Source: a virus. From it: 22,498 bases of DNA. Shown in pieces: positions 19,057 to 22,498 of the stretch. Below the pieces are notes generated by a model that saw only the letters and a list, made by a program, of their open reading frames with translations, had not been told where the DNA came from and made no database searches. The translations under genes and the position numbers were made by a program. The DNA lies in the UHGV virus genome UHGV-1419557; one strand, 5' to 3'. Numbering within the stretch: the first letter of the stretch is position 1; each line of letters starts with the position of its first letter.

Positions 19057-19506
19057 ATGCAAGTAACCGTGGAATATAATCAGGATAGTTTTGACTATTT
19101 TTTCTCCCCGGTTTTTGTTGAGTTTCCTGATTTAAAACAAACACTTGTAGATGATTTTATCATCTACAAGTCTACGGGAACGTTGCCCAGCTATTTTGGC
19201 AGAGACACCTCTTATCATCGACCTCCTGATATTGAAGATGCAGGCCTTATGCACCTTCATTTAGCAATTGGTGAAAATAAATTTGAGCCAATAAAAAATG
19301 GCACAGATATCAGCACACCGCAAAAGTTGCAGTGGCATAAAACATCCAATACCGCTCTCGTTTATGCACAAAATCTTTTTGATGAGAACAGGTATTCATT
19401 GATTGCTCTTTTTCATCCTGTAGCTCACATGTCTGCTAACAATCATAATAGAATGAGAGTGTTAGCAGGGTATGCGAGAGACTTTAGAAACACTATGTTT
19501 GACTAA
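19057..19506 (+). CDS. YafO-family toxin-like protein (putative ribosome-dependent mRNA interferase domain)
   Basis: 149 aa. DFIIYKSTGTLPSYFGRD ... HLHLAIGEN.F.P ... ALVYAQNLFDEN.YSLIALFHPVAHMSANNHNRM ... FR parallels recalled E. coli YafO (DFISYKRDGVLPDIFGRD ... HIHLANENNPFPP ... HLVYCQGAFDEQAWLLIAILKPEPH ... DNNQM ... FR). Followed by a strong terminator. Confidence 0.6.
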   Translation: MQVTVEYNQDSFDYFFSPVFVEFPDLKQTLVDDFIIYKSTGTLPSYFGRDTSYHRPPDIEDAGLMHLHLAIGENKFEPIKNGTDISTPQKLQWHKTSNTALVYAQNLFDENRYSLIALFHPVAHMSANNHNRMRVLAGYARDFRNTMFD

Positions 19507-19530
19507 ACCCACCGTCAGGTGGGTTTTTTA
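19507..19530 (+). terminator. Intrinsic terminator after the YafO-like operon, possibly partly bidirectional
   Basis: Stem aacccacc / ggtgggtt, loop gtca, then TTTTTT. A-run upstream gives weak reverse-strand potential for the convergent ClpP-like gene. Confidence 0.7.
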
Positions 19531-19554: not shown

Positions 19555-20091
19555 TCAAACAACCCACCAGTTTGCCTGATTGGATGCCAGCCTTGCAGTT
19601 TTTATGGAATTAATTATGCCATGCTCAAGAGCCTTGTTAGCATCCAAAATGGTCGAGTCTGCTATCAGGGATGCCCACCTAATATGGGTTCCGATGTCGA
19701 TATTGAACGTCTCAACGAAGCGATCAAGATCGTTATCGAGGCATTTCCCGTACTCTCTCAATCTGGCATGGTCGGCGGCTGGGGAGGCAAAGCACCATAA
19801 TAGAGGATGTAACAGGAATCTTGATAATGGGTTTGCGAAACGTTCTGAGCCAGCCAGGAAAACGATATTAGCTATGGATTCAACATTGCTTATGTTGTGA
19901 GTTCTAACGGTAACAGGGAGTGACTTAAGAAAGTTATACGCAGTAAAGCCAGCAGCAGTTTCCCCTCCCTGACTTGATATATGGATATTTAATTCAGTTG
20001 CGCCTTGAGATAATGCGGTGAGACAGTGGTTCTGAAGTTGCCCAACAGTGGCAGTGTTAACAGGGCATAAGAAATGAATTGTGTGCAGCAT
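19555..20091 (-). CDS. Compact ClpP-like (peptidase S14 / ClpP-crotonase fold) protein, translationally coupled to mnt
   Basis: 178 aa. IHISSQGGETAAGFTAYNFLKSLPVTVRTHNISNVESIANIVFLAGSERFANPLSRFLLHP aligns by eye with ClpP [63 protein letters not shown], with the catalytic Ser and His positions conserved and a candidate Asp downstream. Start ATG overlaps mnt stop (TAATG on - strand); SD aagga upstream. Confidence 0.65.
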   Translation of the reverse strand: MLHTIHFLCPVNTATVGQLQNHCLTALSQGATELNIHISSQGGETAAGFTAYNFLKSLPVTVRTHNISNVESIANIVFLAGSERFANPLSRFLLHPLLWCFASPAADHARLREYGKCLDNDLDRFVETFNIDIGTHIRWASLIADSTILDANKALEHGIINSIKTARLASNQANWWVV

Positions 20092-20339
20092 TATTTTTCA
20101 TCCTTAGCATACATGGTCTTTAGCGTCTCAAGTAGCGCCTCTTTGAATTTATCAGCTTCTTGCTGAGCAAATGACTCAACTGACTTTGGCGACCTATCTT
20201 CATCAATCGCGGCTTGCAAAATCATGACGATCTCGGAGTTAACAGAGCGACCATTTTTTGATGCTCTGACAGCAAGAGCCTCGCGTAAAGATTCAGGGAT
20301 TCTTACCGTAGTTGGAGAAATTGACACACCCTTTGCCAT
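20091..20339 (-). CDS. mnt: Mnt repressor (ribbon-helix-helix, Arc/MetJ superfamily)
   Basis: 82 aa from ATG 20339 (- strand). NGRSVNSEIVMILQAAI motif and ...ETLKTMYAKDEK C-terminus parallel recalled P22 Mnt. Divergent from arc as in P22 immI. Confidence 0.8.
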   Translation of the reverse strand: MAKGVSISPTTVRIPESLREALAVRASKNGRSVNSEIVMILQAAIDEDRSPKSVESFAQQEADKFKEALLETLKTMYAKDEK

Positions 20340-20453
20340 ATAACACCTTTGGTATTCAATTTGATAGCAAAGTGTATGCAAAAAAATTTTGACTAGATAT
20401 ACTCACTTTGCTATCTTTTGTATTCGAAAAGAGTTGTTTGCGTGGAGGGTAAC
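20340..20453. promoter_or_regulatory. mnt-arc divergent control region (candidate Pant/Pmnt and operators)
   Basis: 12-bp inverted repeat arms GATAGCAAAGTG (20363-20374) and CACTTTGCTATC (20404-20415). Candidate Pant: TTGACT at 20389-20394, TATCTT at 20412-20417. Arc SD ggaggg at 20444-20449. Confidence 0.5.
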
Positions 20454-20606
20454 ATGGAGAAAGAAATAAGTAAGATTTTGGTAAGGATGCCGCAGTCGTT
20501 AAAGGATGCTATCGGTAGCAGGGCAAAGGAAGAGTGCAGGTCGTTTAACTCAGAGGTTATCAAGCGCCTGATAGACAGCCTGAAGAGAGAGGGGGTAACG
20601 GTGTGA
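20454..20606 (+). CDS. arc: Arc repressor (ribbon-helix-helix)
   Basis: 50 aa from ATG 20454. ECRSFNSEVIKRLIDSLKREG parallels recalled P22 Arc NGRSVNSEIYQRVMESFKKEG. Upstream of ant as in immI. Confidence 0.8.
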   Translation: MEKEISKILVRMPQSLKDAIGSRAKEECRSFNSEVIKRLIDSLKREGVTV

Positions 20607-20776
20607 TTCGCTTGGATGCAGTAGTCAAAGAGATTGCGATTACCATTTTAAGACCAAATTTTGTTCATGGCGAATCATTTGGCACGAACGAAAAATTGAG
20701 AAGAGAAAGAGTATTCAGTGGCAAGCGCACGTTTTCAGAAGTGATGCTTGATGCGGCAAAGAAATCAAAACAGTGA
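20603..20776 (+). CDS. Possible small ORF (57 aa, GTG start) in the arc-ant spacer; speculative
   Basis: GTG at 20603 overlaps the arc stop (GTGTGA) with SD-like gagggggt 7 nt upstream. Open to TGA at 20774-20776. Lys/Arg-rich product, no known domain. Confidence 0.25.
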
Positions 20777-20842
20777 AGCCCCAACTGCTGGAACAGTCAG
20801 GGCTTCGGTTGTCGGTAAATCCGTGGAGAAAAACCAACATGA
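20758..20842 (-). ncRNA. sar: Candidate sar-like antisense RNA covering the ant ribosome-binding site
   Basis: On the - strand: extended -10 TGCTATACT (complement of 20845-20853) would start transcription near the ant ATG. Hairpin (gaagccc 20775-20781 / gggcttc 20800-20806 plus inner 4-bp stem) followed on the - strand by TGTTTTGATTTCTTT acts as terminator. Predicted RNA about 70-85 nt, antisense to the ant SD and start, as for P22 sar. Confidence 0.35.
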
Positions 20843-21741
20843 ATAGTATAGCAATTTTAGAAGCAGTGAACACCTCTTACGTGCCATTCAACGGTCAGCA
20901 AATTATCACCGCCATGGCTGCCGGAGTTGCATATGTTGCGATGAAGCCAATCGTTGAAAACCTCGGAATGAGCTGGTCAACGCAGCAAACAAAACTCATG
21001 AAGCAGATTAGCAAATTCAACTGTGTTCATATGAACATGGTTGCCGCTGATGGTAAGCTTCGTAAGCTACTCTGCCTTCCTTTGAAGAAGTTAAATGGAT
21101 GGCTGTTCAGCATCAACCCTGAGAAAGTTCGTGCTGACATCCGCGATAAACTGATTCAGTACCAGGAAGAATGCTTTACTGTGCTGCATGACTACTGGAC
21201 AAAGGGAGAGGCAGCAAATGCACGGAAGAAAACATCTGTTGATGACAGGACTCCGCTTCGTGATGCTGTAAATATGCTAGTCAGCAAAAAGCATCTAATG
21301 TACCCAGAAGCTTATGCAATGATTCATCAGCGTTTCAATGTGGAAAGTATTGAAGAGCTTGATGCATCTCAGATACCACAAGCAGTAGAGTACATCCACA
21401 GGGTAGTGCTTGAAGGTGAGTTCATCGGCAAACAAGAGAAGAAAACCAACGAGCTTTCTGCAAAAGAAGCAAACAGCCTTGTATGGCTATGGGATTATGC
21501 CAACCGCTCACAGGCATTATTCCGCGAACTGTATCCGGCGCTAAAACAAATTCAATCGAACTATTCCGGCAGATGTCATGACTGCGGTTATGAGTTCTCC
21601 CGTATTATCGATATGGCGAGAGACGTTTTAATCAATCACACACGAGATGTTGATATCAATGAGCCAGACGGACCAACGAATCTTTCCGCATGGATGAGAC
21701 TTAAGAATAAAGAATTACCTCCTTCAGTACATAATTACTGA
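20839..21741 (+). CDS. ant: Antirepressor Ant
   Basis: 300 aa from ATG 20839. [57 protein letters not shown]... matches recalled P22 Ant. Follows arc and is followed by a terminator and the tailspike gene. Confidence 0.9.
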
Positions 21742-21760
21742 CAGATAACCAACGCAACGA

Positions 21761-21783
21761 CCCAGCTTCGGCTGGGTTTTTTT
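21761..21783 (+). terminator. Intrinsic terminator after ant
   Basis: cccagc-ttcg-gctggg hairpin followed by TTTTTTT. Confidence 0.75.
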
Positions 21784-21841
21784 ATGCCCAAAATTCACCG
21801 TGGCCATGCTGCGGCGATTCTTTGCATCTGGAGCAAATTAA

Positions 21842-22498
21842 ATGACAGACATTACAGCCAATGTGATTGTATCGATGCCTTCGCAACTCTTCACTATGGC
21901 GCGTTCTTTTAAAGCCGTAGCCAATGGCAAAATTTATATCGGTAAAATTGACACTGACCCGGTAAATCCTGAAAACCGGATTCAGGTTTATGTAGAGAAC
22001 GAAGACGGCTCTCACGTTCCTGTTTCGCAACCAATCATCATTAACGCTGCTGGTTACCCTGTATATAACGGACGGATTGCCAAGTTCGTAACTGTGCAAG
22101 GCCATTCTATGGCTGTGTACGATGCGTATGGCGTACAGCAGTTCTATTTCCAGAATGTGCTGAAGTATGATCCTGATCAACTACGGCAGCAATTAGAAGA
22201 CCCAGATGGAGCGAATAAATACCCAAAACTTCAGATAGCAAGATGGAGAGACAGTTATGATGTAAGAGGTTGGGGGGCTATTGGTGATGGTGTTCATGAT
22301 GATACATCAGCTCTATCAGAATTACTTTCTGTTGCAACAGGTGGTGAAAAGATAGATGGGCGAGGGCTTACTTTTAAAGTATCAACTCTTCCAGATGTCA
22401 GTCGATTTAAAAATGCTCGTTTTTTATTTGAGAGAATACCGGGTGGATTTGCCCCTATATTTCCAGACACCTGTTATCACTTAACCCATTACTGGCTT
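21842..22498 (+). CDS. Tailspike protein, 3-prime partial: P22 gp9-type head-binding domain followed by a different receptor-binding domain
   Basis: SD ggag 8 nt upstream of ATG 21842. First ~115 aa ([59 protein letters not shown]...VLKYDPDQ) match recalled P22 tailspike N-terminus. Downstream [15 protein letters not shown] is a pectate-lyase-superfamily beta-helix entry motif. Open to window end. Confidence 0.9.

Follow-up and report, generated by a model that had tools for sequence, protein, structure and literature searches.

The interval between arc and ant in the virus genome UHGV-1419557, analysed here as one stretch of 22,498 nucleotides (the window), very probably holds two separate things within an immI operon of the P22 type (mnt ← Pmnt/Pant → arc-orf57-ant), namely a canonical sar antisense RNA and an accessory cassette, orf57. 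Taken as a whole, the interval belongs to a classic type of phage immunity region, of which it is an unremarkable variant. The gap measures 232 bp (arc end 20606, ant start 20839), as compared with 68 bp in the annotated record of P22 (arc end 15022, ant start 15091) and, as in P22, 68 bp in epsilon34; the initial annotation, which had put it at about 230 bp and longer than in P22, was correct on this point. Its description as an "expanded spacer" holds only in so far as the gap is longer than that of P22, because the spacing of sar and ant is unexpanded and the ≈ 170 bp of extra DNA are a discrete gene cassette, bounded by the 3' end of arc on one side and by the foot of the sar terminator on the other.

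The immI operon and its surroundings

The last 2.5 kb of the window represent the immI ("ant moron") region of a P22-like (Lederbergvirus) E. coli prophage. Throughout 20050-21850 the sequence shares 97.9% identity with phage phiv205-1, and 20340-20900 is a 100% match to prophages of several E. coli genomes, such as ATCC 11775. The operon has the composition of the P22 type, with an Arc-family gene in first position, a divergent Mnt-like gene, and an Ant protein with P22_AR domains. The arc gene (20454-20606, plus strand) encodes an Arc-family repressor of 50 amino acids (Pfam Arc PF03869, 45.9 bits), and ant (20839-21741, plus strand) an antirepressor of 300 amino acids (Pfam P22_AR_N, 153 bits; P22_AR_C, 98.5 bits), the gene being 96.9% identical in nucleotide sequence to ant of epsilon34. 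The ant terminator (21759-21778, plus strand) and the tailspike gene (from 21843, plus strand) follow. Divergent from arc is an mnt-like gene (20091-20339, minus strand) for a ribbon-helix-helix repressor of 82 amino acids (Pfam Arc PF03869, 41.8 bits; FitA-like_RHH, 34.4 bits), which carries the RefSeq label Arc family DNA-binding protein. On the mnt side a ClpP-like gene (19555-20091, minus strand; open reading frame and Pfam) is found, in contrast to orf59a and sieA in P22, and a YafO-family toxin gene (19057-19506) belongs to the prophage accessory region. A candidate Pant (TTGACT, 17 nt, TGcTATCTT; 9/12 in the consensus scan plus a TG extension) lies between mnt and arc at 20389-20417 on the plus strand, in the position that corresponds to the annotated Pant of P22; the matches of the promoter scan in this region are no commoner than in shuffled sequences.

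With the immI regions of P22 and epsilon34 the locus shares gene order and orientation, the divergent mnt and arc around a common control region, the co-transcription of arc and ant, and the tailspike gene downstream, together with the 96.9% identity of ant/sar to epsilon34. It differs from them by other mnt and arc alleles and by the extra cistron between arc and sar. Among P22-like phages, ten types of the "ant moron", including E. coli prophage types, were distinguished in sixteen genomes (Villafane et al. 2008, PMC2629481). That paper treats the variability as one of whole gene sets, whereas here it concerns a micro-slot that extends from the 3' end of arc to the sar terminator. As such the finding is not new, since sar occupies its known place, orf57 already figures in the databases as a hypothetical protein, and the variable nature of the region has been on record since 2008; the boundaries of the slot and its contents are treated further below.

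The sar antisense RNA and its promoter

The RNA sar has been a textbook case of antisense control since 1987. A sar-like antisense RNA had been proposed for the minus strand, with an Rfam search as one means to check it, and this search indeed returned RF00262 (sar) at 20772-20838 on the minus strand, at 83.9 bits (gathering threshold, 43; E = 1.8e-17); the match to the covariance model is full-length (positions 1-68 of 68). With the U-run, which reaches to about 20767, the element occupies 20767-20838, and its matched part is complementary to 20772-20838 of the plus strand, including the Shine-Dalgarno sequence of ant. Judged by its sequence, the minus-strand element is a true member of the sar family, canonical rather than merely sar-like. 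Partial Rfam matches to sroH and STnc370 were discarded as mere terminator hairpins with scores far below threshold.

The predicted fold of sar has a free energy of -32.4 kcal/mol (z = -6.4; equalled by 0 of 200 shuffles), and the minimum-free-energy structure is the Rfam consensus structure. Stem-loop I (20811-20838, minus strand; fold) is complementary to the ribosome-binding site of ant. Stem-loop II (20775-20806, minus strand), recognized by the terminator scan, the fold and the P22 alignment, is an intrinsic terminator with a 14-bp stem and a 4-nt loop, followed by ACUGUUUUGAUUU; along the minus strand, ACTGTTTTGATTT comes directly after this G+C-rich hairpin (20806-20775). The compound hairpin and T-run of the initial annotation thus exist as two hairpins and a U-run, but the length proposed for the RNA, 70-85 nt, has to be lowered to an expected ≈ 67-72 nt (20838 to about 20772-20767). 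The predicted 5' end, 20838, directly adjoins the start codon of ant (ATG at 20839). On the plus strand, the ant Shine-Dalgarno sequence GGAGA (20825-20829, by sequence reading) lies 9 nt 5' of the ATG, and the complementarity to sar covers it as well as all bases to position -1 of the start codon. Comparison of three sar/ant sequence types showed that five of the six pairs of stem I vary and that 97.6% of the cells are still paired, one pair being kept via changes on both sides. The terminator hairpin is invariant in the alignment of P22, epsilon34 and five E. coli prophages; in the wider sample of loci hairpin II served as the search pattern, and its invariance there is therefore partly an artefact.

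The extended -10 element noticed earlier on the minus strand near the ant start was recovered at 20845-20853, whose reverse complement is TGCTATACT, and it aligns with the annotated Psar of both P22 and epsilon34. On the plus strand it reads AGTATAGCA and forms codons 3-5 of ant (Ser-Ile-Ala). This Psar -10 is invariant in all eight aligned loci, the rest of the ant 5' coding region falling into different types, and in 80 of 98 loci with sar its offset is constant even though the N-terminal coding sequences of ant differ. The consensus promoter scan did not list Psar because its -35 region matches poorly. The alignment with P22, likewise suggested at the outset, places sar, the Psar -10 and the terminator at the positions of their annotated P22 counterparts.

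In its family (RF00262), its place antisense to the ant leader, its two hairpins with a terminator, and its Psar extended -10 within ant codons 3-5, the element resembles P22 sar; the two are unlike in the loop of hairpin I, in one stem I pair (G-U to G-C), and in loop II. The 3' tail is ACUGUUUUGAUUU here and AACUUUACG in P22, because the end of orf57, and not that of arc, lies beyond the terminator. From homology, a sar transcript and an active Psar are to be expected in this phage. Psar, located in the first codons of ant, would fire leftward from about 20838, and the resulting two-hairpin RNA would stop at its own terminator. By analogy with P22 it would pair with the Pant transcript and with late read-through transcripts and block translation of ant; in P22, sar pairs with the ant leader and blocks ant translation (Liao et al. 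1987, Wu et al. 1987, Schaefer & McClure 1997, as cited in PMC2629481).

The open reading frame orf57

A GTG frame on the arc stop, with a Shine-Dalgarno-like element upstream, had been pointed out in the initial annotation and is present. The frame, orf57, comprises 57 codons (20603-20776, plus strand); its GTG at 20603 overlaps the TGA of arc (20604-20606) within the tetranucleotide GTGA, and it ends with TGA. The Shine-Dalgarno-like GAGAGGGGG (GAGGGGG; 20587-20595, plus strand) lies in the 3' end of arc, 7 nt 5' of the start. At its other end the frame merges with sar, in that the terminator stem begins within its TGA and the final codons of the frame, AAA TCA AAA CAG, are the sar U-run on the opposite strand. 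The predicted product has a mass of 6.5 kDa and a pI of 10.3. It is already annotated as a CDS for a hypothetical protein (RefSeq WP_000620145.1; QGF19908.1 in phiv205-1) and corresponds to the phage protein family phrog_17642 (E = 1.3e-43; residues 2-57 against profile positions 2-57 of 57).

Of 5426 complete E. coli genomes, 93 carry the orf57 cassette. In all 20 viral contigs that carry it, orf57 is intact and in the same context (17 of the 20 are nucleotide-identical), and these contigs span three arc types and at least four N-terminal types of ant. A K. aerogenes prophage likewise has an undamaged frame, although 11 positions are substituted and the overlap with arc is altered, and so has E. 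coli O104:H4, where PGAP makes no call. The variants in O104:H4 and in locus L153 carry 3-5 substitutions and neither stop nor frameshift, and the overlap with the arc stop shifts from 4 to 8 nt among variants. Nearly all copies are at least 98% identical, so that evolution has hardly put the integrity of the frame to the test. The database also contains protein variants with a frameshift or a truncation (P0004, P0006, P0008, P0009), and two loci show a 45-codon in-frame deletion between short direct repeats.

It is probable that orf57 is translated. The adjacent arc is under strong purifying selection, with pS 0.54 and pN 0.03 (ratio 0.06) against the K. aerogenes copy. For the GTG frame, the synonymous-site analysis by which the initial annotation had wanted its conservation judged gave an equivocal outcome, since three synonymous and eight non-synonymous changes were counted against K. 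aerogenes, and the ratio of 0.73, drawn from only 11 substitutions, is indistinguishable from neutral (binomial P = 0.71 against neutrality). Most of the further changes contributed by E. coli variants are non-synonymous. In the same comparison the synonymous divergence is 0.08 in orf57 as opposed to 0.54 in arc, which shows that the cassette arrived recently by exchange; its recent spread across backgrounds renders the selection test almost powerless. A frame of 57 codons remains open in 5% of dinucleotide shuffles, which is marginal against chance for the open reading frame alone, and orf57 gave no codon-position GC signal.

Searches for relatives of orf57 returned no match in Pfam, NCBIfam, PADLOC or the PDB sequences, and in PHROGs only phrog_17642, a family of unknown function. 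A word search of 5.8 billion proteins yielded 10 clusters, all at least 78% identical, and a HMMER profile search of 1.84 billion representatives found the orf57 family and four long repeat proteins only. These repeat proteins were rejected as homologues and regarded as noise, their scores being summed over 5-7 repeats; one of them has FG-GAP/VCBS-like repeats that loosely resemble residues 5-32 of orf57. No copy turned up in the scan of one genome per species, and no mention of the protein accessions or of the PHROG id was found in the literature. AlphaFold2, applied to an alignment of five orf57 sequences, gave no confident fold (pLDDT 53.8, pTM 0.25).

A structured RNA or second small RNA within the insert was considered and dismissed (folding z = -0.39 and +0.21; sar only in a permissive Rfam scan), as was a minus-strand promoter-like site at 20673-20645, which is at chance level (3 sites against 4.0 expected). 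The scan revealed no promoter-like site between arc and orf57 and no plus-strand terminator after orf57. A classical phage moron has its own promoter and terminator; orf57 has neither and, for this reason, is not one; although it is inserted when compared with P22, it forms part of the Pant operon.

The slot between arc and sar

The boundaries of the cassette were observed from both sides. Megablast similarity to P22 and epsilon34 begins at position 20774 of the window, that is, at the stop of orf57, with none to its left. From the upstream stop codon to the ant ATG there are 62 nt here and 68 nt in P22, and the sar/ant control unit is therefore unexpanded. The other boundary is seen in locus L007, which matches the window at 95% identity or more from 20300, inside mnt, via Pant and arc to about 20600; past this point it continues with an unrelated 73-codon open reading frame, and similarity to the window returns at the sar terminator. 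Near-identical arc alleles are followed by an unrelated cargo, as in L007, or by a remnant of 12 codons, as in L042 and L083.

A survey of this slot, made by an IMG/VR scan with a 15-mer of the sar terminator to which E. coli and phage loci were added, comprised 99 loci with a real sar terminator. Of these, 33 are P22-like and devoid of cargo, in ≈ 18 arc itself stops at the TGA of the terminator foot, and ≈ 45 carry one small open reading frame. The cargos fall into at least nine unrelated families (orf57 and at least eight others), drawn from P22-like prophages of E. coli and Klebsiella. Besides the 57-codon orf57 of the present window, they include a 67-codon CCFCG...CSDC protein (12 loci; decayed in O157:H7 EDL933), the 73-codon protein unrelated to the other cargos, a 74-codon CxxC...CxxC protein, an 89-codon protein with an N-terminal segment judged by eye to be hydrophobic, and proteins of 60, 61, 63 and 80 codons in one or two loci each. 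The 60-codon cargo matches Pfam zf-C4_ClpX with 43 bits (threshold 27), and the cysteine-motif cargos of 61, 63 and 74 codons do so below threshold; several cargos belong to PHROGs families of unknown function. Almost all cargos begin with ATGA or GTGA on the arc stop, and the arc 3' end in front of them almost always encodes ...LKREG[IV]TV*. Almost all of them share one TGA as stop codon; its G and A open the terminator stem, and the A-rich last codons of the cargos are the sar U-run on the opposite strand. No description of this precisely bounded slot, of the shared start and stop of its cargos, or of ClpX-zinc-finger-like cargos was found in PMC8022706, in PMC2629481, or in the other literature searched.

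For orf57, transcription together with arc and ant would follow from the absence of a promoter of its own. Its start may be translationally coupled to arc, as suggested by the GTGA overlap and the Shine-Dalgarno sequence inside arc, and it would escape direct control by sar, which does not reach its ribosome-binding site. In P22, Pant fires in a short burst after infection that Arc brings to an end, and in lysogens Mnt keeps the promoter repressed, in agreement with PMC2629481. Along these lines, the small basic orf57 protein might be made in the short Pant burst after infection and again by late read-through, and its likeliest role, by way of a guess, is that of an accessory early protein expressed along with Arc from Pant. 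It appears dispensable for immI regulation, because P22 and epsilon34 do without it and deletion variants exist. Its target might lie in the host or in a competing phage, which is a guess, and the cassette would move between phages via recombination in the conserved 3' end of arc and in the sar terminator. Whether the slot as a whole is a dedicated, recombination-bounded site for small effectors of the early burst, orf57 among them, directed against a host defence or another host factor, is a tentative proposal that we regard as possible and rather doubtful.

Other readings of the insert have to be weighed against a translated accessory gene. With a considerably lower, though real, probability, the ≈ 170 bp could be non-coding filler or a decaying remnant, a mere spacer whose frame is open by chance and by recent ancestry. 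The dN/dS of 0.73 on 11 substitutions next to 0.06 for arc, the 5% of shuffles with an open frame, the near-identity of the copies, which leaves the integrity of orf57 barely tested, the frameshifted and in-frame-deleted variants, and the lack of a domain, a confident fold and a codon-position GC signal would all agree with this. Yet a start exactly on the arc stop behind a well-spaced Shine-Dalgarno sequence is hardly what filler would provide, and the same holds for at least eight unrelated inserts that each consist of a single, identically oriented open reading frame whose start and stop are arranged alike, some of them with a conserved CxxC...CxxC and one above the Pfam threshold for zf-C4_ClpX. 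Furthermore, orf57 came through 11 substitutions in K. aerogenes and 3-5 in O104:H4 and L153 with its frame undamaged, and it is intact in 20 of 20 viral contigs.

It is unlikely that the insert acts in cis on immI, such that the act of translating it, and not its protein sequence, would matter; it might then alter the way in which the ratio of Arc to Ant is set by translation termination 5' of the hairpin targeted by sar or by mRNA processing. In every variant the upstream cistron stops at the hairpin foot or 6 nt before it (6 nt for the TAA of P22 arc; the cargos, like several arc alleles, terminate on the TGA of the stem), and weak amino-acid constraint on orf57 would fit as well; however, a recombination boundary at the conserved sar block explains the common stop position equally, P22 and epsilon34 function without an insert, no RNA structure signal is seen in it, and the cargos vary widely in length (57-89 codons) and have in part clearly protein-like motifs. 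Very improbable is a toxin-antitoxin pair of type II, in which arc would supply the ribbon-helix-helix antitoxin and autorepressor and orf57 a small basic toxin. The arrangement here, with a small gene overlapping the end of a ribbon-helix-helix gene by 4 nt, is typical of such systems, and the YafO-family toxin gene at 19057-19506 is nearby, but orf57 matches no toxin family in Pfam, NCBIfam or PADLOC, the pair is not obligate, given that the same arc alleles occur with the other cargo of L007 or with the remnant of L042 and L083, and zinc-finger proteins, which do not resemble toxins, make up four or five of the alternative cargos. Also against such a pair, arc of the P22 type occurs without any partner gene, and Arc is the established repressor of Pant (primary papers cited in PMC2629481).

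With the accessory cassette as the preferred reading, a modest lead emerges from the arc-sar junction, a precisely bounded exchange point with many alternative small open reading frames. The cargos of the slot appear wired for co-expression with Arc at the onset of infection and thereby provide a short list of candidate early effectors. Anti-CRISPR/aca-type operons have small variable effector genes beside a conserved autorepressor and a strong early promoter. The arrangement recalls them in its strong promoter, its own small repressor (Arc) and the interchangeable small open reading frames co-transcribed with it, and it differs in that the variable gene lies 3' of the repressor here and 5' in the anti-CRISPR/aca operons. 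In the libraries searched, which were not anti-defence collections, no cargo matched a known anti-defence protein. If the reading as an effector slot were true, the arrangement would be a parallel to these operons, and the several cargos that resemble a free-standing ClpX zinc-binding domain could interfere with ClpXP. A culturable phage is at hand in phiv205-1, whose immI region is 97.9% identical to that of the window.

Small ORFs at the arc–sar junction

Comparison of the 57-codon GTG frame (window 20603-20776, + strand), which lies between arc and the antisense RNA gene sar, with the corresponding region of loci L005, L006, L007, L008, L009, L018, L044, L062, L073 and L086 shows that the arc–sar junction is a swap slot in P22-like prophages. 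At least nine unrelated small ORFs of 57-89 codons were found at this position across different P22-like prophages; in nearly all of them the start lies on the arc stop codon, and every one ends at a common TGA in the foot of the sar terminator hairpin. Several of these cargos are free-standing CxxC...CxxC proteins similar to the N-terminal zinc-binding domain of ClpX. The 60-codon ORF of L073 matches Pfam zf-C4_ClpX with 43 bits (threshold 27), the proteins of L018 (61 codons), L044 (63 codons) and L008 (74 codons) match the same model below threshold, and the 67-codon protein of L005 and L009 carries the CxxC...CxxC motif with no zf-C4_ClpX match. Such zinc-finger cargos might interfere with ClpXP.

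Deletion, divergence and decay at the junction

In two IMG/VR contigs (L042 and L083), only a 12-codon remnant of the 57-codon frame is left after an in-frame 135-bp deletion between the short direct repeats GGATGC and TGATGC. The deletion spares the sar terminator as well as the overlap with arc. An intact copy of the frame is present in E. coli O104:H4 2011C-3493 (NC_018658.1, 1597914-1598087), differing by R3C, I13L and one synonymous change; PGAP leaves it unannotated there, although other RefSeq genomes do have this ORF as an annotated gene. Annotation of the small gene is inconsistent. A decayed locus resides in a prophage with lambdoid context in E. coli O157:H7 EDL933 (NZ_CP008957.1, about 1662355-1662768), where a truncated arc encodes just 36 aa and the zinc-finger cargo of 67 codons is likewise disrupted. 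Upstream of ant, conservation persists in the sar terminator and in the -10 element of the sar promoter.

Neighboring genes and the tailspike end

Directly downstream of the repressor gene mnt, whose stop it overlaps with its start at 20091, a gene on the - strand (19555-20091) encodes a ClpP-like protein of 178 aa (Pfam CLP_protease, 44 bits; PGAP 'ATP-dependent Clp protease proteolytic subunit'), for which PADLOC returned no match. Expression in the prophage state would be shared with mnt, which is an unusual pairing for a repressor that maintains lysogeny. The prophage accessory region also holds a homologue of YafO-family type II toxins (19057-19506, + strand; NCBIfam PRK09885, 79 bits, below the 153-bit cutoff), named a YafO-family toxin by PGAP in ATCC 11775. 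A terminator hairpin comes after it (19500-19527), and Rfam gave a partial match there to the 3' end of sroH. The match to intact tailspike genes ends at window 22444, and the final 54 nt (22445-22498) have thousands of matches across chromosomes and plasmids of E. coli, with as many as 39 in a single genome. The tailspike gene thus seems to be interrupted by an insertion sequence, of which this segment would be one end, and the prophage is therefore probably defective.
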